A stretch of DNA of 64,000 nucleotides from Candidatus Wolfebacteria bacterium GW2011_GWE2_44_13 (GTDB lineage Bacteria > Patescibacteriota > Minisyncoccia > UBA6257 > UBA9933): assembly GCA_001000675.1 (NCBI GenBank), contig LCHW01000001.1, forward strand, positions 68,013 to 132,012, written 5' to 3'. Below the pieces are notes generated by a model that made no database searches, had not been told where the DNA came from, and saw only the letters and a list, made by a program, of their open reading frames with translations. A program made the translations under genes and the position numbers. This document shows positions 7,908 through 28,553 of this stretch, piece by piece. The stretch's first letter is position 1; every line of letters begins with the position of its first letter.

Positions 7908-7980
7908 GCGCCTATAGCTCAGTTGGTAGAGCATCTCGCTTATACCGAGACGGTCCTAGGTTCGAGTCCTAGTGGGCGCA
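7908..7980 (+). tRNA. tRNA-Ile (anticodon TAT)
   Basis: GCGCCTA TA GCTC AGTTGGTA GAGC A TCTCG CTTATAC CGAGA CGGTC CTAGG TTCGAGT CCTAG TGGGCGC A folds as a clean cloverleaf with anticodon loop CUUAUAC. Confidence 0.8.
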
Positions 7981-7984
7981 CAGT

Positions 7985-11852: not shown

Positions 11853-14399
11853 ATGGGCCCTAAATTACTTGATAAACGGAAAAAGAAAGCTCTTAAGATT
11901 ATTAAAAAGCTGAAAGAGCTTTTTCCGGTTTCAAAAATTGCACTAAACTATTCCAATAATTGGGAGCTGCTCGTTGCGGTTGAACTGTCGGCACAATGCA
12001 CTGACAAAAAAGTGAATGAAGTAACGGAGATATTGTTTAAAAAATATAAAACATTGAATGATTACGTGCATGCTGATCCGCGTGCATTTGAAAAAGATAT
12101 TCATGCGACGGGGTTTTATCATAATAAAACGAAAAATATTCTTGCTGCGGCGAAGATGGTGCAAGGCCAATTTGGAGGAGTTGTGCCAAAGACGATGCAG
12201 GAAATGTTAGAGATTCCCGGGGTAGCGCGCAAGACGGCTAATGTTGTACTGGGAAGCGCGTATGGAGTTGTAGAAGGAATCGCGGTTGATACACATGTGA
12301 TACGACTCACGCGATTGTTAGGGCTTACAAGCGAATCGAACCCCGTAAAAATAGAGCGCGATTTAATGGAGATTTTACCGAAAGAAGAGTGGCTCGAATT
12401 CACGTATCGGTTGATCGATTACGGAAGGGCCTATTGCCCTGCTCGAGCACAAAAACTCTCTATAATCATCCCCCTCTTTCTCTTTTTATTACTACCGAAT
12501 AGTTCTTTTGCGCAGCAGCAGGTGTATTCGTATGATGCAATCAATACGACAATTACTGTTAACGGCGATGCAACGTTTACGGTTGAAGAGCAGCAATTGT
12601 TTAATTACGAGGCAGGAACGTTTCATCAAGGGTGGCGCGCTATTTCGCTTGATAAAATAAGCCGCATTACGGATGTGCAGGTTATTGATGGTGCAACAGG
12701 ACAACCATTACAACACAGTAGCCAACGGCTTAATAAAACCGATCCTGATAGCTGGGGAAAATATACAGGGTATACACAGGATGGGAATGTAAACATCGAA
12801 TGGTATTACGACCTTGCTAATACAAAGCACTTGTGGGTATTGCGGTATGTGGTGCACGGCGGGTTCTCGTTCTACAAAGAAAACGATCGATTATATTGGA
12901 ACGCATTAACTGACTATAGCAGTCCTATTGGACTCGCTTCTGTAAAAGTCTTATTCCCTGAGAATGCAGATCTATCTTCTATGCAGTTTGATGCGTATCG
13001 AGAAGATAGTTATGCGATAAATAAAATAGTACAGGGGAATAATAGTATCTATTTTGAAACTCCGTTTATTCAGCCATACGAAGCGTTTACCATAGACATC
13101 GCTTTTCCAAAAGGAATCATAAGTGAATCTGCATTTTGGAAAGAATGGCTTACTGCGTATTGGGGATACGTAGGCTCTGGTATTGCCGCTGTGCTTGGGG
13201 TATTGTTTTCATTATTGTATTGGTATCGCACGGAGCGCTATGGAAAAGGACGTGGCGTTATTATTGCGCAGTACGAGCCGCCGCAGCAATTGCGCCCAGC
13301 GATGGCCGAAGTTTTAGTTAAGGAAAAGATTACGGAAAAAACATGGCCGGCAACAATTATTGACCTTGCGGTTAGAGGGTATATTGCAATCAAAGAAGAG
13401 CCTGAAGATAAACTCGTTGTATTTATACGCCTTTCTCTTGCTGTGATTTTAGTGGGTATCTTAGGAGCTATTAGCGTCCTGGTGCTTTTTGTCGACGTTC
13501 CGTTTGAAGGGAGAATGCCGTTGGTTCTATTTATAGCGGCCCCAATCCTTGTCCTTATTATTGCTTATCGGAAGGAGGGCAGTATTAAAAAATCATTTGC
13601 ACCGAAGAGTTACATTTTAGAAAAAGTAAAGGAATACGAAAACGATCCTAGCCTTGAAGAGTATGAAGTTAAATTCCTGCGGATTATTTTTTCTGGCATC
13701 GACCTAGTAACTAAAGAAAAGAAAAACCATTTTTCGTTAAAAGAGATAAAAAAGAGCTCCTCGTCTCAGAGAGAGCTTGCGCGATTACTTAACCTTCTAA
13801 AGGATGATTTGTATAAGGAGACTGATAAAGACACAAAGGCATTCGAAAAAGCGATACATAAGGAAAAATATTTTATGTTTGTGCTGTTCGGCCTCACCTT
13901 TTTCTTCGCAATGCTTAATAAGATACAAATCATTGATTTGGAAAATCAGCTGCATTTCCTCGTGTTTGTGTGCGCCATTGTTGTAGCTGTTGTGATTGCA
14001 TTTATAAAATTTGAATCGCGGCTTTCGCATGAAGGATATCTCTTAAAAGAAGATTGGCTTGGGTTTAAGCTGTATTTAGAAACGGCAGAAAAATATCGTA
14101 TGCAGAATCTTACGCCTGATATTTTTGAAAAATATCTTCCGTACGCAATGATATTTGGTATTGAAAAAAAATGGGCAAAATCGTTTGAAGGTATACATAT
14201 GCAACCTCCGAGTTGGTACGGATCTTCTTCTGTCGGTATGGCTGCGGGGATTTCTTCTGGCACATCTTTTTCCCCAGTTGGTTTTAGCTCAAGTTTCTCG
14301 TCTTCTTTTTCAAGTGCCTTTGCGTCGGCAGGGGGAGGCGGGGGAGGAGGTGGATCTGCGGGCGGAGGAGGTGGAGGCGGAGGAGGTGGTGCGAGCTAG
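11853..14399 (+). CDS. Apparent in-frame fusion: endonuclease III-like HhH-GPD domain (aa 1-215, no FeS loop) + DUF2207 membrane protein with a C-terminal poly-Gly/Ser tail
   Basis: N-terminus is Nth-like (LLVAVELSAQCTDKKVN, GVARKTANVVL, AVDTHV). After ...DYGRAYCPARAQK it runs straight into a signal-peptide-like LSIIIPLFLFLLLPNSSFAQQ. TM helices follow, then WLGFKLYLETAEKYRMQ...FEKYLPYAMIFG and a SSSFSSSFSSAFASAGGGGGGGGSAGGGGGGGGGGAS tail typical of DUF2207. Confidence 0.6.
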   Translation: MGPKLLDKRKKKALKIIKKLKELFPVSKIALNYSNNWELLVAVELSAQCTDKKVNEVTEILFKKYKTLNDYVHADPRAFEKDIHATGFYHNKTKNILAAAKMVQGQFGGVVPKTMQEMLEIPGVARKTANVVLGSAYGVVEGIAVDTHVIRLTRLLGLTSESNPVKIERDLMEILPKEEWLEFTYRLIDYGRAYCPARAQKLSIIIPLFLFLLLPNSSFAQQQVYSYDAINTTITVNGDATFTVEEQQLFNYEAGTFHQGWRAISLDKISRITDVQVIDGATGQPLQHSSQRLNKTDPDSWGKYTGYTQDGNVNIEWYYDLANTKHLWVLRYVVHGGFSFYKENDRLYWNALTDYSSPIGLASVKVLFPENADLSSMQFDAYREDSYAINKIVQGNNSIYFETPFIQPYEAFTIDIAFPKGIISESAFWKEWLTAYWGYVGSGIAAVLGVLFSLLYWYRTERYGKGRGVIIAQYEPPQQLRPAMAEVLVKEKITEKTWPATIIDLAVRGYIAIKEEPEDKLVVFIRLSLAVILVGILGAISVLVLFVDVPFEGRMPLVLFIAAPILVLIIAYRKEGSIKKSFAPKSYILEKVKEYENDPSLEEYEVKFLRIIFSGIDLVTKEKKNHFSLKEIKKSSSSQRELARLLNLLKDDLYKETDKDTKAFEKAIHKEKYFMFVLFGLTFFFAMLNKIQIIDLENQLHFLVFVCAIVVAVVIAFIKFESRLSHEGYLLKEDWLGFKLYLETAEKYRMQNLTPDIFEKYLPYAMIFGIEKKWAKSFEGIHMQPPSWYGSSSVGMAAGISSGTSFSPVGFSSSFSSSFSSAFASAGGGGGGGGSAGGGGGGGGGGAS

Positions 14400-16908: not shown

Positions 16909-17454
16909 ATGGCAGGACATTCCCACGCAGCAAACGTAAAACATAAAAAGGCAGCAAACGATAAAAAACGGGCAAAAGTATTTTCCAAGCTTATTAAGGC
17001 TATCTCTATAGCTGCCCGTGACGAGGCAAATCCTCAGTTTAATCCAAGGCTTCGTACTGCTATTGATACTGCTGTCGAAAGCCAAGTACCAAAAGAAAAT
17101 ATCGATCGTGCAATTAAGAAAGCATCTGAGCCGGGGGAAGAACTTGAAGAACTTACAATGGAAGCCTATGGGCCAGAAGGTTCTGCGCTTATTATTACTG
17201 CGATTACCGATAATAAAAACAGAACAGTAAGTGAGGTGAAGTTGATTCTTAAAAAACAGGATGCTAAATGGGCTGACCCAGGGAGTGTGCTTTGGGCGTT
17301 TGAAAAAGATGGGGATGGATGGAACGCAAAGTTTCCGCAAGCTATTTCTGCAGAAGGAATGGAAAAATTAGAAACACTTATCGAGGCACTTGATGATCAT
17401 GATGATGTTGATGATATTTACGTGAATTGTAATATGTCAGAAGGGGAGGAGTGA
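16909..17454 (+). CDS. yebC: YebC/PmpR-family transcriptional regulator (short form)
   Basis: MAGHSHAANVKHKKAANDKKRAKVFSKLIKAI matches the YebC N-terminus [32 protein letters not shown]. 181 aa, shorter than canonical. Confidence 0.8.
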   Translation: MAGHSHAANVKHKKAANDKKRAKVFSKLIKAISIAARDEANPQFNPRLRTAIDTAVESQVPKENIDRAIKKASEPGEELEELTMEAYGPEGSALIITAITDNKNRTVSEVKLILKKQDAKWADPGSVLWAFEKDGDGWNAKFPQAISAEGMEKLETLIEALDDHDDVDDIYVNCNMSEGEE

Positions 17455-17504
17455 GAGATGGGGTATAAGAAATGACAATTCTTTAATAGAAGAAATATAT
17501 ATGT

Positions 17505-17981
17505 ATGAAAATATTAGGAATTGATCCAGGAACAACGCGTGCAGGGTATGGCGTTATAGAATCGCAAGGCAATTCTATAACATTGCTCGATAGTGGTCTA
17601 TTATCGGTAACTGCAAAAGAAACAGCGCAGCGCCTTGTTGAGCTTGCGAATTCATATCGTGAGCTACTTCGAAAAACAAATCCCGAACTCGTTGCTTTTG
17701 AAAAGTTATTTTTTGCGAAAAATGTAAAGACGGGCATGGACGTCGCCCAGGCGCGTGGAGTGCTGCTGCTCATCACTGCTGAAGCGGGAATACCATTTCT
17801 CGAATTGTCTCCTTCAGAAATTAAATTGCATATAGCGGGCAACGGCTCCGCTGACAAGCAAGCGGTAGCAACAATGGTAAAGCGTATTACGGGGCTTAAA
17901 ATTATCACTGGGCCTGACGACGTAACAGATGCCATCGCTATTGCTATTGTAGGGGCAAATTATTGGAAGTTCTCTGTTTAA
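17505..17981 (+). CDS. ruvC: Crossover junction endodeoxyribonuclease RuvC
   Basis: MKILGIDPGTTRAGYGVIE. Conserved yebC-ruvC synteny. Confidence 0.85.
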   Translation: MKILGIDPGTTRAGYGVIESQGNSITLLDSGLLSVTAKETAQRLVELANSYRELLRKTNPELVAFEKLFFAKNVKTGMDVAQARGVLLLITAEAGIPFLELSPSEIKLHIAGNGSADKQAVATMVKRITGLKIITGPDDVTDAIAIAIVGANYWKFSV

Positions 17982-18049
17982 TTTTGGGTGGTATATTTTA
18001 GTTGCAGCGAAGGCATATGCAGTTTTTTATTTATAGCAATAGTGTGATA

Positions 18050-18142
18050 AAATAAATGTGGTAAAATAAGTATCCTTACTCTAGTAGTCGCTTTTCTAAC
18101 GACACAGTAAATAGCCTCCTCGATTCGATGAGTGCCTAGTAA
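18050..18142 (+). pseudogene. Decayed remnant of a 19411-like small gene (3' end and intergenic leader), left by a tandem segmental duplication
   Basis: 18097-18176 aligns with 19696-19780, including ...aatagcctcctcgattcgatgagtgcctagtaa, which encodes NSLLDSMSA-stop, the C-terminus of the 19411 protein. The atgtggtaaaataa leader at 18054 matches 19392. Confidence 0.5.
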
Positions 18143-18154
18143 TTACTACACCCT

Positions 18155-19237
18155 ATGAAATCATCAAAATCACTCTCAATACTCCTATCCGTTATTGTTA
18201 CTACACTTACTGTTGTCTTTATTGTATCTGCGGACAATTGGACTCCACCTGCTGGAGAGCCTACGGCAAATAACACACCTGCGCCTATTCATGTTGGAGG
18301 GAATGCCCAATCTAAGTCAGGAGGGCTTATTGTGGGGGCTGGACTTTCTGCTTCGCAAAATGCATTGATTGTTCCTACGGGGAATGTGCTTGTGGGGACT
18401 ATTAATGGGCAAACGGCTCCTAATGGAGGGGGTGGAAATGTGGTTGCAAATGATTTCTATATTACAAGTATCGGTAAATGGGTGAGTCAGCTCTCTACTA
18501 ATGCACCTTTTTCGCAGGGAACACAGGTGTTTAATGAGACTGGAACATTCACTGTTCCTGAAGGCGTATACTCAGTTGAGGTAACCGCTTGGGGTGGAGG
18601 GGGAGGAGGGTTAGCTGCCTGCTTCGAAGCAGACCGGAATTCGCGTGACACGGGTGGGTCTGGAGGAGGTGGCGGGGCGTGGGCAAAAAAGGTTATCGCT
18701 GTTACGCCTACGGTTACCTATGATGTGGTAGTTGGCGGAGGAGGGGCAGGAGGAATAAGAGGAGGAAGTCGTGGTTGTGCCACAGGGGGGTCTGGGGGAA
18801 AAAGTTCATTCGGCGCTGATTTGCTCGTCGTAAAAGGAGGGGGTGCTGCGTCTTATGATGGGGGTCCAAACAATGACATCCTGAGGGGTGGAGCGGGAGG
18901 GGCTGCTACTGCCGGGGACGGCGAATCTTTGGCTGGAGAAAATGGAGGAGATGCAGATGGATTACCAGAGGGTGCGAGAGGCGGATCTTCTCCAAATGGA
19001 GGGGCTAAAACATCAAGGTCAACTGGCGTGGGGTCTTCAGGCTTTACTCCAGGAGGTGGCGGAGGTGGCGGAGCACTAACTGTTTTGACAGCCGGCTATT
19101 ATAATTCTGTAGAGAATGCCGATGTCCCTGGGTACTACAACCAAGAATGGGTTGCTCCTACATATACTTATCATGTAGGAGGCGCCGGTGCAAAAGGTAA
19201 GGTGATCGTTACTTGGGGCGGTGCAGTAGCACCGTAG
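18155..19237 (+). CDS. Secreted Gly-rich protein, paralog A of the NWTPP/NNTPAPINVG N-terminal-domain family
   Basis: Signal peptide with AxA cleavage (VSA/DNW). The mature N-terminus DNWTPPAGEPTANNTPAPIHVGGNAQSKSGGLIVGAGL...ALIVPTGNV is shared with 19760 and 24430. The rest is Gly-rich (GGGGG runs). Confidence 0.55.
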   Translation: MKSSKSLSILLSVIVTTLTVVFIVSADNWTPPAGEPTANNTPAPIHVGGNAQSKSGGLIVGAGLSASQNALIVPTGNVLVGTINGQTAPNGGGGNVVANDFYITSIGKWVSQLSTNAPFSQGTQVFNETGTFTVPEGVYSVEVTAWGGGGGGLAACFEADRNSRDTGGSGGGGGAWAKKVIAVTPTVTYDVVVGGGGAGGIRGGSRGCATGGSGGKSSFGADLLVVKGGGAASYDGGPNNDILRGGAGGAATAGDGESLAGENGGDADGLPEGARGGSSPNGGAKTSRSTGVGSSGFTPGGGGGGGALTVLTAGYYNSVENADVPGYYNQEWVAPTYTYHVGGAGAKGKVIVTWGGAVAP

Positions 19238-19351
19238 GAAACGGTGTTTCTAATGAAGCCGGTGGCTTTAAAAAAGGAATCGGCGGAAAAGTTGCAAATG
19301 GAAAAGTTATTTTGCAATGGTAACTAGCTAGAAGCGTTTTACTGCAAAACA

Positions 19352-19382
19352 AAAACACCAGCGCTCGCTGGTGTTTTTGTTT
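19352..19382 (+). terminator. Rho-independent terminator (family aacaccagcgc-N-cgctggtgtt, repeated three times in the island)
   Basis: Hairpin followed by tttttgttt. Near-identical copies at 20719 and 23390. Confidence 0.7.
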
Positions 19383-19410
19383 ATGCTCTCAATGTGGTAA
19401 AATAATTGCA

Positions 19411-19746
19411 ATGAGTTTTAAGGAAATAATAATAAAATATCGTATTGCTATCGTGATTGTAATAGTCGCGGTTACGCTTGCCATTTTTGGTATATATGTG
19501 ATGACGGGACGTAACGTTGCGCCGCCTATAGAAGAGCCCCCTCAATCTTCTGAACCCATTATTCTTACTCCTGAATTAACAAAAGTATTAATCAAGGAGA
19601 TGAGTGTTCCTACGACAACAGAGGTTCAAATGCCTAAAAATAAAATAGAGGAAGTTAAAAAAGAAATGTCAGTTGATCCTAAGAAAACTCCGCCAGTTTC
19701 TAGCGACACAATAAATAGCTTGCTCGATTCGATGAGTGCAAAGTAA
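19411..19746 (+). CDS. Small membrane-anchored hypothetical protein
   Basis: 111 aa with an N-terminal TM and a Pro/Glu-rich tail. A remnant paralog lies upstream at about 18.05-18.14 kb. Confidence 0.45.
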   Translation: MSFKEIIIKYRIAIVIVIVAVTLAIFGIYVMTGRNVAPPIEEPPQSSEPIILTPELTKVLIKEMSVPTTTEVQMPKNKIEEVKKEMSVDPKKTPPVSSDTINSLLDSMSAK

Positions 19747-19759
19747 TTATCACATCCTT

Positions 19760-20704
19760 ATGAAATCACCAAAACTACTTTCTCTTATATTATCAATTAT
19801 CATCACTACACTTGTAGTGTTTCTCGGTGTTTCTGCTGATTGGGCAGGTCCTGTAAGTGAACCACCAGATGGAAACGTAGCGGCTCCGATTAATATTGGA
19901 GGCAATGCACAATCAAAGTCTGGAGGTCTTATTGTTGGAGCAGGACTTACTGCTGCACAGACTGCACTTATTGTTCCTGCGGGGAATGTAGTCATCGGAA
20001 CGCTTACCCCAATAAATTCTGCTCCTAATGGAGCGGGAGGTAATGCGAGCGTAAACGATCTCTATATCCGCAGTATCGGTAAATGGGCTTCGCAGCTTTC
20101 TGTGGGTCCAGTTGCAGGGCCAGCTGCCTATTGCGGAGGAGTTGCATATGATGCGGAAAATGCGTATTGTCAAAACGACATTATTTATAACGTAGGGGAT
20201 TGGATTCCGCTCGACAACGACTCGAGCAACCAAACAGATCCAGCTGGAAATTGGTCAACACTTATAACAAAACAAGTAACATTTCCTGTTAAAACCTGTA
20301 AGCTAAAAGCACAGGCCGGCTTTAATGATGGAGGATTCGTTGCTGTTTTTGATGGCGCAGCTCGACTTGCCCTTTGGGAAAAGAATTTTACGATTGAAAA
20401 TATGGAAGCAGGTATCGGGCGGTTTTCTGTAAAAGATCAAAATAACCAAGCTTGCGGAGTTTCCGGTTTTGTTGACGGAGGGGACTATACACAGACTTTC
20501 TATACTTCCACTGCGCCCTATGTTGAGGGAGGGGTTTTGAAATGGTGCGGTTATGTTGCTTGGAGGAGTTCGGGAAGCGCTAATACGAATGAGTATACTG
20601 TTAGCAAAGCAAAGGGGACGACGGCAACTGTGTATTCGACGCATGCATTGGGGGATAGTGGAGATAATCATTCATACACGCTTTACGGCAAATATTGCAA
20701 TTAA
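19760..20704 (+). CDS. Secreted protein, paralog B of the conserved N-terminal-domain family
   Basis: Start MKSPKLLSLILSII by homology to MKSSKSLSILLSVI of paralog A. Mature N-terminus DWAGPVSEPPDGNVAAPINIGGNAQSKSGGLIVGAGLTAAQTALIVPAGNV. Unrelated Cys-containing C-terminal domain. Confidence 0.55.
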   Translation: MKSPKLLSLILSIIITTLVVFLGVSADWAGPVSEPPDGNVAAPINIGGNAQSKSGGLIVGAGLTAAQTALIVPAGNVVIGTLTPINSAPNGAGGNASVNDLYIRSIGKWASQLSVGPVAGPAAYCGGVAYDAENAYCQNDIIYNVGDWIPLDNDSSNQTDPAGNWSTLITKQVTFPVKTCKLKAQAGFNDGGFVAVFDGAARLALWEKNFTIENMEAGIGRFSVKDQNNQACGVSGFVDGGDYTQTFYTSTAPYVEGGVLKWCGYVAWRSSGSANTNEYTVSKAKGTTATVYSTHALGDSGDNHSYTLYGKYCN

Positions 20705-20718
20705 AGCGAGCTATAGCA

Positions 20719-20746
20719 AAACACCAGCGCGCGCTGGTGTTTTTTA
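20719..20746 (+). terminator. Rho-independent terminator (same family)
   Basis: aacaccagcgcgcgctggtgtt followed by ttttttat. Confidence 0.7.
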
Positions 20747-20948
20747 TCCGATTCGATTGCCATTACTATTGTAGGGGCAAATGGTGCAAAACTACGTGCG
20801 GTTCCATAAAAAGAGCCTAGAGCTCTTTTTATGAGGGGCGATTGTATATTCTACTCGGAAGATTTAAAATTAACAGTATTAACTAAAACATATAGCATCC
20901 TGTCGATTTAGCCACTAATTATAGGCTAAGTGCTCGATACCTCAAAAA

Positions 20949-21398
20949 ATGAAAAAAAATATAATCTTATCTATAGTAGGAGTACTCGTTGTAATCGGTA
21001 GCTTTCTTTTGGGAGCGTATATGATGACTCGATCGGCAGAAAATGCCCCAGCTGCTTCCGAGGAGACTGTAAATCAGAAATTTTCTGAAGAACAAATAAG
21101 TTCAATTACGGCGTTGACTCCGGGTAATATTGTATCCGGTCAGGTGATTACGATAGGAAGTAATGAATTAGATATTTCTGTCGCGATAGAAAATGTGTTT
21201 GATGAGTTAGCAGACCCACAGATGACCACGGTAAAAGTGCCTGTTAATAAACAGGATGTGATTAGTAGGCTCGTGAATGATCCAGAAGCCTTCATTTTTA
21301 AGCAAACCATCATGCCGCTTAGCGAAATAAAAATCGGGGACTATGCAACGGTGAAGGTACTTGATGACAAAAAAGTAATTTTTGTAACCTCACAATAA
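20949..21398 (+). CDS. Membrane-anchored hypothetical protein
   Basis: 149 aa, N-terminal TM. The stop overlaps the next start (ATGA). Confidence 0.4.
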   Translation: MKKNIILSIVGVLVVIGSFLLGAYMMTRSAENAPAASEETVNQKFSEEQISSITALTPGNIVSGQVITIGSNELDISVAIENVFDELADPQMTTVKVPVNKQDVISRLVNDPEAFIFKQTIMPLSEIKIGDYATVKVLDDKKVIFVTSQ

Positions 21399-23281
21399 TG
21401 AAAAAATATACTATATCATTTCTATTAGTAGCTCTGACGGTTACGATGATACCCGTAACGTCTTTTGCTGCTATTGATTGGTTCCAGAGTCCTTCTCTTG
21501 TGTACCCGACCAGGCCCGGCCATTTTATTAATAGCGATTTATTAAAAGATAAGGCGAGCTTGCCGTTAGACACACCGCTAACAACTACGCGCGTGGTTAA
21601 TTTACTGAATAGTATACCGAGTACGAATGGAGTTGATGGGGTAACTCCTATTATATCGAAGATGGTAGGTGTTTCCTCTGCAACTCCTGATGCGGTATCG
21701 TTTTTTCGAAAAACATATGGATTTAAAAATAACCAAGCGGCGTATTTGCCTATAGAGGCTACGGATACAGAGGGAATTGCTTATTTATACCAACCACCTT
21801 TGCCAGCTCCAAAGGCTGATACTACGGAGCTTATTACGGCAACCTCATCTATTAGGGTTAACGGGAAGGACAAAGTTGTTACAAAGTATTATCTTAAGCA
21901 GACGTTTATTAAAAACGATTTAACTAAAATAGTTAAAAAGGAAAAGAATCTTTTTATTAAATATAAGGACGAAAATAATGTAGATATTATTGATTATCGC
22001 AATATCTTACAAGAAATAACCTCGTTTACCTATACACGGTATACGCCTGTTACGGAGATACTTAAAGGAGATAAAACCCCCACTCCAACATGCGTAGTGA
22101 CGGGGTATGATGATAGTGGGGAGATCACGGAATGTACTAGCCCTGATGTAGTGGCATACGTCGATGGGAAAACATATGCCGGTTATGCAGTGACTGGTTT
22201 GGTGTGGAAGCGTAATGCGGATAAAAAAGCGCTTGACCCGTTGCTTCCTTTTGGAATCCCCTTTGGGATTACGGAAGCATTTTCCCCTACGTACTCCACG
22301 GTTGCCTCTCCGCAGGCTCCTGAAATGACCGCATCAATTACGAGACCGCTTAATAGTGATATCATATGGCGGGGAAATCCTAATTGCGTTACAGATACAG
22401 ATAAAGATTGGAATAAAACAACTGTTACTATCGCCTGCACTATGCGTGCAATAGCTGCCGATGGGCGTATTGGGTCTGGTAATTTCTATCAGAGAGAAAG
22501 CAGTGGGGGCTTTCTGGGTGGATGGATGGGGGATATATTCTCTCTCTCGTTTACGGCAGGGCTAGCAGAAATCGCAGGGCTGCCTCCATTTGGTGGATTT
22601 GTGACTGGGGACTTCTTTTCTAACGACCCCTTTATACAACTAGCAGGTATCCCAAGGGCACTGGGGACAGTCCAATCCTTGTATAATGTTGGAGGGGTGC
22701 CTTGGACATGGACGTGGACTAGCCGGTTTAATGTGCAGGAGGATAAGGATATTCCACAAGTCACACTTCGAGCTAGGGGACAATTGTCAGATCTTGATGT
22801 TTGGGTGCCAAATAATGCGGTTGTGTTAGATTGGACATCGCAGAATGTTAAACCAACGTGTAACGTTTCCGGAAATTGGTCTGGAACGAGAGCGAATAAG
22901 GGTACGCAGTTATTAGGAAAATTGCCGAGAACAGGTGCTAAGCCAAATGAGGCAAAGCAGTATACCTATACAATAAGTTGTGTAGATATAAATTCAACCG
23001 CAACCGTTTCGTCGAGTGTTTCGGTCAATGTTTGGCCGGCTACCCTCAAGCTTCCTATACCAACTAATGGTTCTTGTGGGGATTCGCATAAAAAAGTTAT
23101 TGCTTCTACTCCCGTTTCTGGTCTTTGTGTGGTTGGGTCTGCCTCGTCTGTAACTGGTACTGACCCGTGGACTTGGACTTGTTATGGGGCAGATGGAGGC
23201 TCGGACGCTTCTTGTGAGGCTTCATCATCTAATTCGACTTCTACTAAAGTGCGTATTATCGAGACAAACCCTGGAGAATAA
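21398..23281 (+). CDS. Large secreted hypothetical protein with a C-terminal 4-Cys domain ending ...KVRIIETNPGE
   Basis: 627 aa with a signal peptide (SFA/AIDW). The C-terminal tail motif is shared with the 23479 protein. Confidence 0.45.
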   Translation: MKKYTISFLLVALTVTMIPVTSFAAIDWFQSPSLVYPTRPGHFINSDLLKDKASLPLDTPLTTTRVVNLLNSIPSTNGVDGVTPIISKMVGVSSATPDAVSFFRKTYGFKNNQAAYLPIEATDTEGIAYLYQPPLPAPKADTTELITATSSIRVNGKDKVVTKYYLKQTFIKNDLTKIVKKEKNLFIKYKDENNVDIIDYRNILQEITSFTYTRYTPVTEILKGDKTPTPTCVVTGYDDSGEITECTSPDVVAYVDGKTYAGYAVTGLVWKRNADKKALDPLLPFGIPFGITEAFSPTYSTVASPQAPEMTASITRPLNSDIIWRGNPNCVTDTDKDWNKTTVTIACTMRAIAADGRIGSGNFYQRESSGGFLGGWMGDIFSLSFTAGLAEIAGLPPFGGFVTGDFFSNDPFIQLAGIPRALGTVQSLYNVGGVPWTWTWTSRFNVQEDKDIPQVTLRARGQLSDLDVWVPNNAVVLDWTSQNVKPTCNVSGNWSGTRANKGTQLLGKLPRTGAKPNEAKQYTYTISCVDINSTATVSSSVSVNVWPATLKLPIPTNGSCGDSHKKVIASTPVSGLCVVGSASSVTGTDPWTWTCYGADGGSDASCEASSSNSTSTKVRIIETNPGE

Positions 23282-23389
23282 AAATAATTAATCTTGTGTT
23301 CCGTAAGGTGGGGTAGTCATAGATATTTTGTTCCTATGTAGTGTGTTGTATCTAGTTTGGTCGATAGAAGTCATAAAATTAAAAACAAA

Positions 23390-23423
23390 CCTTAAAACAC
23401 CGGCGCATGCTGGTGTTTTAAGG
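23390..23423 (+). terminator. Rho-independent terminator (same family)
   Basis: ccttaaaacaccggcgcatgctggtgttttaagg. Confidence 0.65.
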
Positions 23424-23478
23424 TTGAGGGGTTTTATGGTAGAATAAATGTAGTAATCATATATAGTATTTAATCATT

Positions 23479-24387
23479 ATGAAAAAAATTGATATCCGAA
23501 AAAACAGTTATCTTTTGTTCGGATTTGCTTGTGGTGTCACGCTTTTTGCGGCATACATAATAGCATTTGGTGGTTTTGAAGCACGTAACGATGGGCCTCT
23601 TGCTTCTGCACAAGAAGCCCCGTTTGTAGTTCCTCCAACCGACCCCTCTGTGCGTGGATGGATGTGGTCTTCAAATATCGGATGGATTAGCTTTGATTGT
23701 CGAGATGGAGGACGGTGCGGTACCGGAGCTGGTCAGGCTAATTATGCGTCGCCTATCAATCTGACTACGGGGGTAGTGTCGGGATATGCATGGTCTTCGA
23801 ATATTGGATGGATTAAAATGAACCCAACGGGAGCGTATCCTTCTGCGCCTAACCATGGATTGCAGGCGGACATAAATACGGGGGTTTTATCTGGTTGGAT
23901 GCGTGCCTGTAGCGGCGCGGCAAATGCTAACTGTACTGGAGGAGCTGTCGATGGATGGGACGGGTGGATTAAAGTGTATGATGCAAAAATTTCTAGTGGA
24001 GGGTACATTACGAACACCGTAGGTACTAGTGGGGGATGGATGTGGGGCGGCGATGTTGTCGGTTGGGTAAAAACCTCTGACATTATTGGAACTATTGGGA
24101 CTTCGTTCCCTGTTGCAGATTGTGCATTTAGAGCAACGCCTCCTTCAATCATGCCCCCACAATCAGTTAAATTGGAGTGGATTTGTAATGATGCTACGCA
24201 GCAAAATTCGTGCAGCATCGATAATGGTGGTGGATCTAATTTACCAACATCGGGAAACGTTGTTATGCGCCCAACTGAAACAACTCCTTACGTATTAACA
24301 TGCCAAGGATTTGGTGGTCCAGTGATAAAGAATTTGCCAGTTACTATAACAAAAACAAAGATTATTGAAGTGCGTCCTGGGCAGTAA
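23479..24387 (+). CDS. Membrane-anchored protein with SSNIGWI / GW-containing repeats and a C-terminal Cys domain ending ...KIIEVRPGQ
   Basis: Repeats GWMWSSNIGWISFDC / GYAWSSNIGWIKMNP / GWDGWIKVYD / GWMWGGDVVGWVKTSD. C-terminal tail similar to the 21398 protein. Confidence 0.45.
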   Translation: MKKIDIRKNSYLLFGFACGVTLFAAYIIAFGGFEARNDGPLASAQEAPFVVPPTDPSVRGWMWSSNIGWISFDCRDGGRCGTGAGQANYASPINLTTGVVSGYAWSSNIGWIKMNPTGAYPSAPNHGLQADINTGVLSGWMRACSGAANANCTGGAVDGWDGWIKVYDAKISSGGYITNTVGTSGGWMWGGDVVGWVKTSDIIGTIGTSFPVADCAFRATPPSIMPPQSVKLEWICNDATQQNSCSIDNGGGSNLPTSGNVVMRPTETTPYVLTCQGFGGPVIKNLPVTITKTKIIEVRPGQ

Positions 24388-24429
24388 GATTCTTTTCGAA
24401 ACACAGCCGTAATCTAAAGTTACTAATAT

Positions 24430-25422
24430 ATGCATACATCAAAATTTATTACGTATTTCATAGCAGTGGTCCTTACGGTCGGTATCGGTGCTGCGCTTGC
24501 TACTGCAGCAAATTGGACGCCACCTACTCAAGAGCCTCCGGCAAATAATACTCCTGCGCCAATTAATGTTGGGCCTACTGCTCTACAAACAATAGACGGC
24601 GCACTTACGGTGAAGGGGCTTATCGAAACAACAACAGCCTTAGGAGGTATTAAATTTCCCGACGGAACGATTCAAAAAACAGCTGCTGTTACAACAAATG
24701 TGGGCGGAGAGGGTTGCTATCCGATGGCCGGGAATAACTGTCTCGTAGGATATTATATGAGTGGTATTGCTACGTGCTGTCCCCTTGATGCAAATAAAGC
24801 ATTCACTCCGGGGGTTTGGTTCCTTAATAAGCTTGCCGTTTCTTATCCACGTGAACAAACGTATAACAATGTATGGTCTCCTAAGAAAACTGATTCGTTT
24901 GTCGCACAATATGCGATTAATAAAATTCGTATAAAGGGTTCCGCTGATGACGGTGGCTATTGTTACGCGTATTGGGGCACTGGACATGCACAAACAAGTC
25001 GTAATACTGGCGCAAGCGGATTGTTTACGGTAGATGGTAAATGGTATGGAGCTCCAAATGCGGGGCAATGGTTCAGCAACACTGTGAATGGTGCCTGTCC
25101 GCAAAGTTTAAATCCATATCCGGGCAGCCCTCATTTTACGAAGATTCCTGTGTGTGATAATGTCGACTGGGAAGGCTATTGCACGGACCCTGAGCAAGCC
25201 TACGGTTGTGGATTTACTCGCTGTCCGTTTGGAGCAAATACATTTGACGATACAGGAAATGCGAAAATATGCGCAACAAACTATGATTCTGGTAATATGA
25301 CGACGATTGTCGAAGATGTTGTTATCCCTGCTGGGGCAACGGTTACTTTGCAAGGGCGACATGCAAACGGGTGGCGACATGGCTATCTTAGCTGCGCACT
25401 TGATTTCCAATACACTCCTTAA
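24430..25422 (+). CDS. Secreted protein, paralog C of the conserved N-terminal-domain family, with a Cys-rich C-terminal domain
   Basis: Mature N-terminus ANWTPPTQEPPANNTPAPINVG matches paralog A almost residue for residue. About 16 Cys downstream. Confidence 0.55.
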   Translation: MHTSKFITYFIAVVLTVGIGAALATAANWTPPTQEPPANNTPAPINVGPTALQTIDGALTVKGLIETTTALGGIKFPDGTIQKTAAVTTNVGGEGCYPMAGNNCLVGYYMSGIATCCPLDANKAFTPGVWFLNKLAVSYPREQTYNNVWSPKKTDSFVAQYAINKIRIKGSADDGGYCYAYWGTGHAQTSRNTGASGLFTVDGKWYGAPNAGQWFSNTVNGACPQSLNPYPGSPHFTKIPVCDNVDWEGYCTDPEQAYGCGFTRCPFGANTFDDTGNAKICATNYDSGNMTTIVEDVVIPAGATVTLQGRHANGWRHGYLSCALDFQYTP

Positions 25423-25448
25423 TAATTAGTATTTTACTATATAACGAT

Positions 25449-25964
25449 ATGGAACAAAAATTAGTAAATAAAATTTTGATTGTCGGTGTTGTTTTGAGTT
25501 GCCTTGTTTCGATAGGATTAATTATATTTGTGCTGAGGGCATATCAAAAAGAGGCGACAGTGGTGGAAACAAAAGAAGATACTACGCCAATAACCACTCA
25601 AATTGTTGATTCGGGCCCAGTATCATTCGTTGGTTTTGTTGGCAAGCCTGTATCGACTACGGTGGGGCTGGATAACGGAAACAAGATAATCGAATTACGA
25701 GGACATACTACGCAAAATACAAATAAGGCGTATGAATCTGTTTTAGATACAGATATGATGACGCGTAGAATTATTATTAATCCAGATACGCAAGTACGCC
25801 GCATTACTCAAAAGAACCAAATACCAGAGGTTAATGGTATTGAATTTAATGAGCTTACTTCTGCCGTGACTACAGATGTGTACATCGCTTCATATGAGGC
25901 AAAAGAAGGGGAGGAAATAACGGAAACAACCCCAGCCCATTCTATTGTCATCTTTGCCAAGTAA
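25449..25964 (+). CDS. Membrane-anchored hypothetical protein
   Basis: 171 aa with an N-terminal TM helix. Confidence 0.4.
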   Translation: MEQKLVNKILIVGVVLSCLVSIGLIIFVLRAYQKEATVVETKEDTTPITTQIVDSGPVSFVGFVGKPVSTTVGLDNGNKIIELRGHTTQNTNKAYESVLDTDMMTRRIIINPDTQVRRITQKNQIPEVNGIEFNELTSAVTTDVYIASYEAKEGEEITETTPAHSIVIFAK

Positions 25965-25978
25965 GGACTTATAAAAGG

Positions 25979-26037
25979 TTGACTCTTCCACAGAGTGTGG
26001 TATAGTAGTTATAGAAATTCCGCACTTGTGCGGTTTT
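25979..26037 (+). promoter_or_regulatory. Promoter (TTGACT-16-TATAGT) followed by a leader hairpin-terminator (ccgcacttgtgcgg + TTTTT); possible attenuator upstream of nusA
   Basis: Hexamers at 25979-25984 and 26001-26006. Stem-loop 26020-26032 plus a U-run lies inside the predicted leader, before the nusA ATG at 26095. Confidence 0.4.
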
Positions 26038-26094
26038 TCTATTATACGGATAAAAGCGTATAATAAAGTAATAATTAAATAACAATTAAATAAC

Positions 26095-27339
26095 ATGTTA
26101 GATTTAAAATCATTAAATTACGCAATTAAACAGATCTCCGAAGAGAAATCTCTTCCGGAGGAACAGATTTTGTCGGCCGTAGAGTCGGCAATCGCAGCTG
26201 CTTATAAAAAGGAGTACTGCGAACGAGGAGAAATAGTGCATGCAAAGATCGATACCAATAGCGGTCAATTTACGTTCTGGAAAACAAAGACCGTCGTTGA
26301 TGAATCAACGGTGCGCATAATTGAAGAGGAAGAAATTGTTGAACCTGAGCCAGGAGCTCCTGTGAAAAAAGAAGAAGTTGTTATTGAGGAGGAAGACGAA
26401 GATTTGCTCCCTCGTTACAATCCAGACCGACACATTTTAATCGATGAAGCTCGTGCAATAAAAAAGAATGCGGAATTAGGCGAAGAGCTTTCATTCCCGC
26501 TTGAAGAGCGACAAGATTTCGGTCGCATTGCTGCGCAGACTGCAAAGCAAGTTGTATTACAAAAAATTCGCGAAGCAGAACGTGATTCTGTGCGAAAAGA
26601 ATATCAAGGAAAAGAAGGTGAAATCGTAAGCGGTATTATCCAGCGTGTTGAACGAGGTAATACCTTTATTGACCTTGGTCGCGCGATGGGTGTTATGTTA
26701 TATAACGAAGTCATTCGCGGAGAACACTACAACATCGGAGAGCGCATGCGCTTTTACGTTGTTGCCGTGCAAGACGAAGAAGGCAAACGCCCTGGAATTA
26801 TCTTGTCTCGCTCACACCCTAAGTTTGTAGCAAAGTTGTTTGAGATCGAAGTTCCTGAAATTTTAGAAGGACTTGTTGAAATAAAATCAATTGCTCGTGA
26901 ACCGGGGAGCCGCACAAAGATGGCCGTACATAGCACAGAAGAAGGTATTGACCCGATTGGTGCATGTGTCGGACAGCGCGGAACGCGTGTCATGACCGTT
27001 ACTACGGAATTGGGAAATGAAAAGATTGATATTATTCAGTGGTATGAAGATCCTGCTCAGTTTATCGCTGCAGCACTTTCGCCCGCAAAGGTAACCCATG
27101 TCGAAATTCGTGATCGTCGTGAAGCAAAGGTACTTGTGCCAGAAGATCAGTTGAGCCTTGCTATTGGTAAGGATGGACAGAATGCGCGCCTTGCAGCTCG
27201 TTTGACGGGTTGGAAGATCGATATACGATCACAGGCACAGCCAGACGCCCCACAGGCCGGCGGTGTGTTTGGAAAATCAGAAGACGAAGAAGGTGTTGAT
27301 TTTGGAGGTACTGAACCAACTGTTTCTACTGAAGAATAA
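26095..27339 (+). CDS. nusA: Transcription termination/antitermination factor NusA
   Basis: N-terminal domain, S1, and two KH domains (GxxGxNxRLAARLTGWKIDI). There is an acidic insertion in the N-terminal domain. Confidence 0.85.
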   Translation: MLDLKSLNYAIKQISEEKSLPEEQILSAVESAIAAAYKKEYCERGEIVHAKIDTNSGQFTFWKTKTVVDESTVRIIEEEEIVEPEPGAPVKKEEVVIEEEDEDLLPRYNPDRHILIDEARAIKKNAELGEELSFPLEERQDFGRIAAQTAKQVVLQKIREAERDSVRKEYQGKEGEIVSGIIQRVERGNTFIDLGRAMGVMLYNEVIRGEHYNIGERMRFYVVAVQDEEGKRPGIILSRSHPKFVAKLFEIEVPEILEGLVEIKSIAREPGSRTKMAVHSTEEGIDPIGACVGQRGTRVMTVTTELGNEKIDIIQWYEDPAQFIAAALSPAKVTHVEIRDRREAKVLVPEDQLSLAIGKDGQNARLAARLTGWKIDIRSQAQPDAPQAGGVFGKSEDEEGVDFGGTEPTVSTEE

Positions 27340-27417
27340 TTTAAAAATAATTTCTAATAACATATTTCTAATTACCAATGCACTGCATTAATAATTAGAA
27401 ATTAGTTATTTCACACT

Positions 27418-27939
27418 ATGAACTTTGAAGCACTAGGAGCGGGCGAAAAAGCCCCTGAAATCGTTACCGTTGTCGTTGAAATCCCAAAAGGAAGTCATAA
27501 TAAATATGAATACGACGAAGAGACAGGCGTATTTAAACTCGACCGCGTTTTGTATTCTCCAATGCACTATCCGCTCGACTACGGATTTATTCCGCAGACT
27601 CGATCTGAAGATGGAGACCACTTGGATGCATTAATTATCGGCAGCGACCCTGTATTTACCGGATGCGTTGTGAACATGCGACCAATCGCTGTATTTCATA
27701 TGGTGGATTCTGGAGAAGCTGACGCAAAAATTCTTGGGGTACAGGCAAACAATCCTCGCTTCGATTCTATTAAGGACTTAGCAGATGTGGAGTTGCATAG
27801 CCCTCACTTGCTGAAAGAAATTTCTCACTTCTTTAAGGTCTATAAGGATCTCCAAGGGAAAGAAGTGCACATTCAAGGATGGGAAAATAAGGCCGCAGCA
27901 ATTGCGGAAATTGAAAAGTCTCAAAAGGCTTATAAATAA
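27418..27939 (+). CDS. ppa: Inorganic pyrophosphatase (family I)
   Basis: [11 protein letters not shown] and DGDHLDALI motifs; 173 aa. Confidence 0.9.
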
Positions 27940-27965
27940 AAATAGCTAACAATAGTAAATACATA

Positions 27966-28553
27966 ATGAACTTAATTCCAACGGTAATTGAAAAAAGCAC
28001 GTATGGAGAGCGGGCATACGATATTTACTCTCGTTTGTTGCGTGATCGCATTATATTTCTTGGTGGTATTATCGATGATAATGTTGCTAATACGGTAATT
28101 GCGCAGCTCTTGTTTCTTGCACATGAAGACCCAAAGAAGGATATTCAAATATATTTGAATTCTCCAGGGGGATCAGTGACTGCAGGACTCGCCATCCTTG
28201 ATACAATGAACTACATTAAGCCCGATGTATCGACTATCTGTGTAGGTATTGCCGCTTCGATGGGTGCAGTACTGCTTGCGGGTGGGAAGAAGGGAAAGCG
28301 TTTTGCACTTCCTAACTCCGAAGTTATGTTGCATCAAGTTATGGGTGGATATGAAGGGCAGGCCTCGGACATTGAAATCAATGCGAAGCATATCCTTAAA
28401 ACAAAAGAAAAGTTGAACCAATTCCTTGCAAAAGCGACTGGACAACCAATGAACCGCGTTGAAAAAGACTCAGATAGAGATTTTTACTTGTCTGCTGCAG
28501 AGGCAAAAGAATATGGGTTGATTGATGAGGTAATGAAGACAGTGAAGAAATAA
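27966..28553 (+). CDS. clpP: ATP-dependent Clp protease proteolytic subunit ClpP
   Basis: [14 protein letters not shown], and the catalytic Ser in [13 protein letters not shown]. Confidence 0.9.

Follow-up and report, generated by a model that had tools for sequence, protein, structure and literature searches.

An island of predicted exported proteins between ruvC and nusA

Our analysis concerns a stretch of 64 kb from the genome of Candidatus Wolfebacteria bacterium GW2011_GWE2_44_13 (hereafter the window, meaning the whole 64-kb stretch), in which eight open reading frames (ORFs) lie on the + strand between ruvC and nusA (18155-25964) and are numbered P1 to P8 in their order along this strand. 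Three of them, P1, P3 and P7, are members of what we call the fibre family (FIB) and form the main subject here. Each of the eight proteins carries exactly one strongly hydrophobic segment, which is N-terminal (Kyte-Doolittle maximum over 17 residues, 2.06-3.22), whereas the flanking YebC, RuvC, NusA, inorganic pyrophosphatase and ClpP have none (maximum 0.62-1.40). This agrees with a sequence-only reading made earlier, which had described eight secreted or membrane-anchored proteins encoded on the same strand. A Pfam annotation was obtained for one of the eight ORFs only (P1, Gly_rich_2), and the GC content of the island is the same as that of its surroundings. The sequence of the window lies, without a difference, within a 541-kb contig of a Rifle groundwater metagenome (SRR1658471, PRJNA268031), from which many genomes of the Candidate Phyla Radiation (CPR, or Patescibacteria) derive, and the island is also present in other assemblies. 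The features of the three FIB genes are:

18155-19237, + strand: P1, 360 amino acids (aa), FIB member
18155-18232, + strand: leader of P1 (residues 1-26)
18233-18520, + strand: N-terminal module of P1 with one fibre repeat and the neck NDxYIxSIGKWxSQLS (residues 27 to ~122)
18539-19216, + strand: Gly_rich_2 tip of P1 (residues 129-354; Pfam E 2e-14)
19760-20704, + strand: P3, 314 aa, FIB member (leader, residues 1-26)
19838-20113, + strand: N-terminal module, repeat and neck of P3 (residues 27 to ~118); the remainder is an orphan tip domain with 6 Cys
24430-25422, + strand: P7, 330 aa, minimal FIB member (leader, residues 1-26)
24508-24573, + strand: N-terminal motif of P7, ANWTPPTQEPPANNTPAPINVG (residues 27-48)
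24643-24687, + strand: junction of P7, GGIKFPDGTIQKTAA (residues 72-86), followed by the tip, a beta-sandwich in the AlphaFold2 (AF2) model with 12 Cys

A module shared by P1, P3 and P7

The first 115 residues of P1 and P3 show 64% identity (E 1e-43), and the remaining parts of the two proteins are unrelated. P7 has the leader in common with them but, of the mature protein, only about 22 residues, ANWTPPxxEPPANNTPAPINVG (ANWTPPTQEPPANNTPAPINVG in P7), beyond which it diverges (...LGGIKFPDGTIQKTAA) before the 12-Cys domain begins. The almost identical module of about 60 residues which the sequence-only reading had assigned to all three paralogs therefore holds for P1 and P3, but is reduced to about 22 residues in P7. 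No further copy of the module was found in the 64-kb window. Comparison of the P1 and P3 modules gave a ratio of nonsynonymous to synonymous substitutions (dN/dS) of 0.22 at a dS of ~1.1; the module is under purifying selection, and the two copies are old ones kept alike by selection rather than products of a recent duplication or conversion. The C-terminal parts of the three proteins are mutually unrelated in pairwise comparison, P1 being rich in Gly (23%, with Gly_rich_2) and P3 and P7 containing 6 and 12 Cys, respectively, in line with the differing C-terminal domains that had been described.

The signal peptides predicted earlier for the three proteins are likewise supported by a rule-based inspection, which places small residues at -3 and -1 ahead of the conserved W (VSA/D in P1 and P3, ATA/A in P7; the slash marks the putative cleavage site). 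The W lies at +2 or +3 relative to this site and not at +1, so the exact mature N-terminus is not conserved. We found none of the anchoring motifs LPXTG, SLH or lipobox in P1, P3 and P7, which end in ...WGGAVAP, ...YGKYCN and ...DFQYTP and have no second hydrophobic segment. Together with the lack of SLH and Gram_pos_anchor matches by Pfam, this sustains the earlier view that they are neither sortase substrates nor S-layer-homology proteins.

A large family with a constant N-terminus and variable C-termini

A profile of the three modules was used for a HMMER search of 1.84 billion protein cluster representatives (clusters at 50% identity) and, at E<=1e-3, matched 1,151 clusters. The best 150 of these are 105-603 aa long, and almost all of them have the module immediately behind the leader, with a start at about residue 20-65. 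A word-indexed homologue search retrieved no homologues with the P1 module alone and only 20 short proteins with a 52-sequence profile. Alignment of the best 150 motif-bearing sequences on the conserved W yielded the consensus leader-VxA/W-T-E-P-x3-P-P-x-G-N-x3-P-[LI]-N-x-G-x3-Q-x-K-x-G-G-L...GNVGIGTxxPxxKL. Conservation along the motif is high: W is present in 148 of the 150 sequences, the P of WTEP in 149, the two residues of PP in 138 and 142, N in 143, P in 148 and [LI] in 140, followed by N (136), G or S (147), Q (144), K (144), G (142) and L (131), after which the sequences continue into ...GLIVxxGNVGIGT. The leader has a hydrophobicity of at least 1.6 in 145 of the 150, with Ala at -1 in 94 and Val or Ala at -3 in 86.

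The 45-residue N-terminal module of all 150 sequences forms a single BLAST cluster (92% of pairs similar), whereas the regions past W+100 fall into 64 clusters among 127 representatives (2.4% of pairs similar). The combination of a constant N-terminal module with variable C-terminal cargo, which had been proposed from the three paralogs of the island, thus extends to the family as a whole. Moreover, a relative from another sample (P0003) joins a stalk of the P1/P3 type to a tip of the P7 type and is an instance of module shuffling. A description of the WTEP-motif family was not found in the literature searched, apart from a passing remark on a "tail fibre-like protein" in a preprint on Pam pili (bioRxiv 10.64898/2026.03.03.709456).

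The leader could also be read in another way, namely as an uncleaved signal anchor that makes these proteins type II proteins of the cytoplasmic membrane, with the WTEP...PP region as a juxtamembrane stalk. To our knowledge, the CPR cell envelope has no outer membrane, and a membrane anchor would suit such cells as well as the lack of LPXTG, SLH and lipobox motifs; residues 4-24 of P3 are modelled by AF2 as one confident helix, and the variable position of the W is also compatible with a leader that stays in place. However, Ala at -1 and Val or Ala at -3, at the frequencies given above, are characteristic of the substrates of signal peptidase I and dispensable in an anchor, and the leaders are short, with about 15-20 hydrophobic residues. 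We consider an uncleaved leader unlikely.

Distribution in cellular genomes

A degenerate DNA pattern for W..P...PP..N...P[LIV]N.....Q.K.G.L, validated on known loci, matched at least 120 loci in the species-representative genomes of GTDB. According to their record labels, the loci listed comprise 93 from Patescibacteria lineages, 19 labelled "bacterium" and 8 from other taxa. The CPR labels among the matches listed include Parcubacteria/Paceibacterota, Moran-, Nealson-, Yonath-, Kaiser-, Falkow-, Campbell-, Taylor- and Nomurabacteria as well as metagenome-assembled genomes (MAGs) labelled "Saccharibacteria". A hydrophobic leader precedes the motif in 126 of the 127 matches listed that have an identifiable start, which shows that the matches are not due to chance. 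The complete members among the GTDB matches listed range from 77 to 2,211 aa (median 270). One MAG (SRR6007446_bin.20) has FIB genes in five separate 8-kb stretches (L025, L049, L060, L090 and L097), so some CPR genomes have many dispersed paralogues, similar to the 21 MAT paralogues of Bdellovibrio discussed below. Overall, the family is very large and essentially limited to Patescibacteria.

Relationship to phage tail fibres

Residues 55-307 of P1 match phrog_863 ("tail fiber assembly", E 5e-20), and P1 also matches phrog_6202. Among the 150 relatives, matches to phrog_9942 ("tail fiber protein", 58 sequences), phrog_3269 (42) and phrog_18345 (36) were most evident. These PHROG matches begin past residue ~48-70, that is, they cover the region from QxKxGGL...GNVGIGT onward and exclude WTEP...PPxGN...PxN. 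Pfam identified Peptidase_S74 in 10 and Gly_rich_2 in 4 of the 150 relatives, and single members carry a type IV collagen C4 (NC1) domain, YadA_head, Laminin_G_3, Dockerin, T7 fibre or T4 fibre domains.

The similarity to many PHROG tail-fibre families could suggest that the genes are remnants of a prophage or tailocin left in the chromosome. Against such an origin, the N-terminal motif pattern gave 0 matches in the 2.9 million viral contigs of IMG/VR as opposed to at least 120 cellular loci, and the members carry secretion leaders (145 of 150 library sequences; 126 of 127 GTDB matches listed). Phage genes were not found in the 64-kb window, the rest of which consists of housekeeping genes, and capsid, terminase, integrase or baseplate genes do not surround the island; furthermore, synteny with nusA is kept across CPR lineages and the GC content fits the surroundings. 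Viral motif matches, leaders, gene content and synteny largely refute a prophage remnant, to which we assign hardly any probability.

The family nevertheless resembles phage fibres and tailspikes with a C-terminal Peptidase_S74, such as the K1F endosialidase and the L-shaped fibre of T5, in its PHROG repeat families, in the presence of S74 in ~7% of members and in the logic of its layout, with a constant N-terminal end for attachment and a variable one for receptor binding; small tip-specific downstream genes, described below, recall the chaperones Tfa and gp38. Unlike phage fibres, the CPR genes are chromosomal with housekeeping flanks, have no motif match in IMG/VR and no baseplate, and their products carry a Sec-type leader and so would fold outside the cytoplasm.

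Relationship to the mosaic adhesive trimers of Bdellovibrio

A search of PDB sequences with the module profile identified Bd2133 of Bdellovibrio bacteriovorus (8OND, E 2e-8) and 8OML (E 0.0033), and gave weak matches to 8OL4 (E 0.084), 8ON4 and 8OJN (E 0.08-0.14), which, like 8OML, are "cell wall surface anchor family proteins". All alignments form one group of hits, in which profile positions ~30-74 lie on repeated ...GNVGIGTxAPTAKLxV... units. Moreover, a profile of the P7 family matches Bd2133 (8OND) with E 3.4e-5, and here GGIKFPDGTIQKTAA of P7 aligns with TSGGIKFPDGSVQTTAA of Bd2133, which directly precedes A910, the start of the tip-only construct used by the authors of that structure.

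The matched entries are mosaic adhesive trimer (MAT) fibres (Caulton et al. 2024, PMC10769870). MATs occur as 21 paralogues with a signal peptide, a conserved N-terminal domain of ~130 aa and swappable tips; their stalk is a meandering trimeric beta-helical fibre with capping loops of the form V-G-G/N-pi-x-x-P-x-x-x-L (PMC10769870). They fall into S74 and non-S74 subfamilies, are displayed on the surface of the predator and recognise prey, and CPR is not among the other taxa that the paper tabulates (PMC10769870). The GNVGIGTxxPxxKL of the CPR family is the motif defined there as MAT capping loop. In the island, P1 and P3 have one degenerate copy each (GNVLVGT... and GNVVIGTLTP...), and P7 has none.

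From the matches of stalk and junction it follows that the CPR proteins have the repeat, the pre-tip junction (GGIKFPDG[ST]xQxTAA) and the whole architecture in common with MATs such as Bd2133, Bd1334, Bd2439 and Bd3182, that is, a signal peptide followed by a region conserved among paralogues, a stalk and swappable tips. Further shared traits are the GNVGIGTxxPxxKL stalk motif, the split into S74 and non-S74 members, the many paralogues per genome and a producer that lives by attaching to other bacteria. Bdellovibrio MATs are thus the closest characterised relatives of the family.

Profile positions 1-29 (WTEP...PPxGN...PxNxG...QxK) had no match in the search of PDB sequences, where the MATs are represented by C-terminal fragments, and on this evidence the first ~29 mature residues appear to be without a known counterpart. 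A well-characterised domain such as a tail fibre in the module would speak against the sequence-only reading, and this is half the case: these ~29 residues are without a match, while from about residue 50 onward the module matches tail-fibre and MAT families and represents an extension of a known fibre architecture rather than an unrecognised fold.

The S74 catalytic motif is present in 6 of the 90 complete members from GTDB genomes, and collagen-like G-X-Y runs of 12-37 triplets in 5 of these 90, located behind the WTEP module (L011, L050, L079, L087, L089). Both are modules of obligate trimers, and Peptidase_S74 is the intramolecular trimerisation chaperone of endosialidases and tail fibres. 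Their occurrence in family members lends indirect support to trimers.

A model for the fibre family

We consider it rather likely that P1, P3 and P7 represent short members of a family that is found throughout CPR and whose proteins are exported by Sec and form trimeric surface fibres of a MAT-like kind, in which a constant base carries variable adhesive tips. According to our model, the hydrophobic leader would direct the chain through Sec and would then be cut after the small-x-small site, as suggested by the leader and the -3/-1 pattern seen in the sequences. The predicted mature chain begins with the Pro-rich motif of ~29 residues, W-x-x-P-x3-P-P-x2-N-x3-P-[LI]-N-x-G-x3-Q-x-K, and runs into at least one putative beta-helical fibre repeat with the MAT/S74 capping loop GNVGIGTxxPxxKL, both of which can be read from the sequence. 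Outside the cytoplasm, three chains would join into a fibre, which we infer from homology and from the S74 chaperones and collagen G-X-Y runs in other members. By analogy with MAT and phage fibres, the constant N-terminal end may stay at the cell and dock to a conserved surface element, and the exchangeable C-terminal tip may bind a ligand, for which the surface of a host or partner cell is the most plausible place. Chains exported by Sec arrive unfolded and must fold and trimerise outside the cytoplasm, and membrane-anchored helpers specific for the tip or the base would therefore be expected beside the fibres, in analogy to Tfa, gp38 and the membrane-anchored chaperones proposed for Pam pili. 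Judging from the gene neighbourhood, the P6-like proteins and the small N-terminally anchored proteins encoded upstream are candidate anchor or assembly factors, and P8 is a candidate partner specific for the P7 tip.

Several observations weigh against this interpretation. P1 and P3 have a single degenerate fibre repeat each and P7 has none, because of which the proteins of the window (314-360 aa; median of the GTDB matches listed, ~270 aa) are far shorter than the characterised MATs (~600-1,000+ aa). Compared by description, the conserved N-terminal part of the CPR proteins is a Pro-rich motif of ~29 residues (about 30) plus one repeat and not the beta-rich N-terminal domain of ~130 residues found in MATs. 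CPR producers lack an outer membrane, which makes it hard to see how a cleaved fibre would stay attached to them. A difference from MATs is also that the CPR genes lie in a conserved cassette with genes for P6-like and small anchored proteins. The proposed link to host attachment is one of analogy. Furthermore, eight of the GTDB loci listed carry labels other than CPR (two Bdellovibrionales, two Gammaproteobacteria and one each of Hyphomicrobium, Planktophila, Thermoplasmata and Pacearchaeota). These eight are possibly mis-binned, and at least one of them (L055, labelled Gammaproteobacteria), which shows a typical CPR cassette, probably is.

Structure prediction is a further weak point, as the AF2 monomer models are poor. 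For P3 (63-sequence alignment), the mean predicted local distance difference test score (pLDDT) is 52, and only the leader helix and residues ~100-120 are confident. The mean for P7 (6 sequences) is 55, with values of 65-90 in the tip; a Foldseek search of the PDB with this tip found nothing at E<1e-3 and only generic noise resembling jelly rolls, C1q and phage receptor-binding proteins. The tip of P3 has no match in Pfam, PHROG or NCBIfam.

Gene neighbourhood and candidate partners

The other genes and features of the island and its flanks are:

16909-17454: YebC
17505-17981: RuvC
19411-19746, + strand: P2, 111 aa, small membrane protein with an N-terminal anchor; ends 14 nt upstream of P3
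20949-21398, + strand: P4, 149 aa, small, with an N-terminal anchor; its stop overlaps the start of P5
21398-23281, + strand: P5, 627 aa, predicted to be secreted, leader ...VTSFA/A, C-terminal tail ...VRIIETNPGE
23479-24387, + strand: P6, 302 aa, N-terminal anchor, W[MA]WSSNIGWI repeats and a PKD/Ig-like C-terminal domain, tail ...KIIEVRPGQ
25449-25964, + strand: P8, 171 aa, N-terminal anchor
25979-26006: promoter-like site ahead of nusA (consensus scan only)
26020-26033, + strand: terminator-like hairpin between P8 and nusA (consensus scan only)
26095-27339: NusA, followed by inorganic pyrophosphatase (ppa) and ClpP

The consensus scan for promoters and terminators gave counts that are not clearly higher than the shuffled expectation.

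Neighbouring genes were clustered over the GTDB loci listed (at least 120; raw counts). Besides the FIB genes themselves, they include the P6-like family, which was found in 24 of the 120 loci by clustering (21 matches by phmmer) and always lies at most two genes from a FIB gene. NusA (14 loci), ClpP (13), trigger factor (Tig, 10) and pyrophosphatase (7) also recur. Beside nusA, the recurrent order is a small anchored protein of ~97-117 aa, a P6-like protein and one or more fibre genes (L010, L046, L069, L081, L083, L095, L100). The cassette adjoins nusA, often together with ppa, clpP and tig, in L010, L023, L046, L069, L081, L083, L095, L100, L108, L112 and L114 and is either upstream of and co-directional with nusA, as in the window (18155-28553), or divergent from it. 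Its position beside nusA in divergent CPR lineages indicates a conserved chromosomal locus or hot spot and not a mobile island. In a related contig (L007) the island recurs behind RuvC, in the order RuvC, two P2-like genes, P0003, a P8 homologue (45% identity) and a P6 homologue (52% identity).

P6-like proteins have an N-terminal anchor, several G[YW]AWSxNIGWISFN repeats and PKD/Ig-like C-terminal domains; further loci that encode them include L010, L016, L023, L047, L067, L081, L089 and L100. For the repeat region we found no Pfam family and no relative in the PDB, where a profile search matched PKD domains only; Pfam detects PKD in some members. In the family alignment, the C-terminal end reads P-x-[FWY]-x-E-[FVI] or ...IEVxP, and in three proteins (L016, L047, L101) PP[IV]I[WR]LK and a hydrophobic stretch come after the tail, an arrangement similar to a sorting signal. 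The C-terminal tail that had been noticed as common to the two larger secreted proteins of the island was recovered: P5 and P6 are 32% identical over 59 residues of their C-terminal regions (E 0.017), and residues 436-612 of P5 match the P6-like profile (E 4.7e-5), so that its C-terminal ~180 residues are related to the Ig/PKD-like end of the P6-like proteins. The tail P-x-[FWY]-x-E-[FVI] of P5 and the P6-like proteins may, instead of being a sorting signal, just mark where a PKD/Ig domain ends, as the PKD domains of ColH align through it.

The small anchors of ~97-120 aa directly upstream of FIB genes contain exactly three tandem amphipathic repeats in ~17 clear cases (including L016, L020, L027, L067, L099, L114, L117, L121 and L125). 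The third repeat ends 0-8 residues from the C-terminus; an example is L016 (674-967) with EEILQSLTAP, AQILESLSAP and EDVLKSLSAP. The presence of three anchor repeats beside a presumed trimer is suggestive. P2, whose hydrophobic segment comprises residues 12-28, has weak phmmer matches to the anchors of ~110 aa adjoining nusA in L114 and L108 (E 2e-4 and 3e-4), and its candidate repeats (KVLIKEMSVP, EEVKKEMSVDP and NSLLDSMSAK) are not significant as a repeat (z = 1.65); judged by its sequence, P2 seems to belong to the three-repeat family as a weak and degenerate member. P4 has no family match in Pfam, PHROG or NCBIfam, and no homology to the P8 family was detectable by hhalign (probability 0.4%).

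These neighbours also allow a more specific proposal, in which the invariant N-terminus of ~29 residues marks a CPR-specific, Sec-dependent system of fibre assembly and anchoring whose partners would be the P6-like proteins with GYAWSxNIGWISF repeats and the three-repeat anchors. Each anchor repeat would then clamp one chain of the fibre trimer. We put this forward tentatively and give it a small, though not negligible, chance of being correct; if true, CPR cells would possess a modular and rapidly diversifying repertoire for host recognition.

Tip-specific neighbours and pili as alternatives

Homologues of P8 lie directly downstream of genes with P7-type tips in L007 (45% identity, E 9e-48) and L004 (30%, E 2e-18), so that three genomes have P8 or a homologue of it behind a P7-type tip, whatever the type of stalk. 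Such an arrangement also fits polymorphic toxins or effectors, in which a constant trafficking N-terminus carries variable C-terminal toxins and P2, P4 and P8 would be immunity proteins; the constant N-terminus, the variable C-terminus and the small downstream gene all agree with this, as does the P7-P8 pairing despite differing stalks. However, Pfam found fibre or adhesin modules only in the 150 representatives and no toxin domain (nuclease, deaminase, ADP-ribosyltransferase or peptidase toxin), and a small anchored gene follows in only 15 of the 68 non-S74 FIB genes with a readable downstream region. In these 15 pairs, similar tips occur in one pair only, too small a sample for co-variation of tip and small gene; six S74-bearing members were examined for such a gene, four of them at contig edges. 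Moreover, phage fibre chaperones are just as typically encoded by a tip-specific gene downstream, and the P7-P8 pairing equally fits a tip-specific chaperone or anchor. A toxin system is accordingly a highly improbable explanation.

A different possibility is that FIB proteins belong to a CPR pilus, as its subunits or as adhesins at its tip, and that their N-terminal motif inserts into it; the pilus would be one of type IV or, like Pam, a donor-strand pilus that depends on Sec. Genes for PilB (7), pilins (5), PilD (4) and PilC (3) are neighbours in the 120 FIB loci listed, for example in L083 and L055, and consistent co-localisation of a "tail fibre-like protein" with the pam operon has been reported (bioRxiv 10.64898/2026.03.03.709456). 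On the other hand, pilus genes are lacking in the 64-kb window, the small partners are anchored N-terminally whereas PamC and PamD are anchored C-terminally, and the S74 and collagen modules suggest self-contained trimers. In addition, neither P1, P3 and P7 nor the family consensus contains a class III signal (G/[FM]TLIE, or G/FTLIE), which upholds the earlier statement that these proteins are not type IV pilins. Type IV pilins resemble them in being small and exported and in combining a conserved N-terminus with a variable C-terminus, and they are abundant in CPR and sometimes encoded nearby, but their hydrophobic helix follows the G/F site and belongs to the mature protein, whereas the hydrophobic segment of FIB proteins precedes the motif; true GFTLIELLVV pilins are separate genes in some FIB loci.

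Pam pili consist of Ig-like donor-strand-exchange pilins with PapD-like chaperones that have C-terminal transmembrane helices (bioRxiv 10.64898/2026.03.03.709456). Like the fibre family as proposed here, the PamA/PamB system is a CPR-exclusive, Sec-dependent extracellular filament system with membrane-anchored helpers. It differs in that P2, P4 and P8 are N-terminally anchored and that Pam occurs mainly in Saccharimonadia and Microgenomatia, whereas the FIB matches listed come mainly from Parcubacteria-type lineages. The FIB models, which are too poor for a judgement of folds, showed nothing of the Pam type. We regard a role as pilus component as decidedly improbable. With regard to gene content, L055 (1130-7854) encodes, in this order, a PilM-like protein, a P6-like protein (561 aa) and a FIB protein of 941 aa, and L083 has the order PilC-PilB-FIB-tm-P6L beside a divergent nusA; these cassettes may be functionally linked to the type IV pilus machinery.

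Implications for host recognition by CPR bacteria

On the open question of how CPR bacteria locate their host cells and keep hold of them, the recent literature names type IV pili and Pam pili (2026 preprint, bioRxiv 10.64898/2026.03.03.709456). The MAT-like fibres proposed here have the properties of a recognition repertoire: they form more than 1,000 clusters at 50% identity, are largely confined to CPR, are exported with a constant base and hypervariable tips and are homologous to the fibres by which phages and Bdellovibrio recognise bacterial surfaces. By this analogy, the family is a good candidate for the recognition or holding of other cells by these tiny symbionts. Adhesive trimers that are secreted, resemble tail fibres and combine a constant base with mosaic tips have been known since 2024 in Bdellovibrio; what appears to be new is a very large and compact CPR branch with a short invariant N-terminal motif and a cassette containing two uncharacterised partner families. 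If confirmed, MAT-type fibres would reach from Gram-negative predators to monoderm-like ultrasmall symbionts, and Sec-exported tail-fibre modules would represent a general bacterial solution to cell-cell recognition. For future studies, the motif is short and searchable in CPR genomes, the cassette names candidate anchoring and assembly partners, and proteins of 300-360 aa are easy to express.

Other features of the window

Upstream of the 13 genes in 16909-28553, we found no Shine-Dalgarno-like purine-rich motif within 20 nt 5' of any start, and these upstream regions are AT-rich. An ORF of 848 aa (11853-14399) represents a fusion of HhH-GPD to DUF2207. The ENA assembly of this population splits it into two gene calls (211 and 663 aa), and the 848-aa form is present in another assembly; either strain variation or a frameshift may account for the different calls. 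Finally, the window encodes an uncommon tRNA-Ile with the anticodon TAT (UAU) at 7908-7981; in most bacteria, AUA is decoded by a CAU tRNA modified with lysidine.

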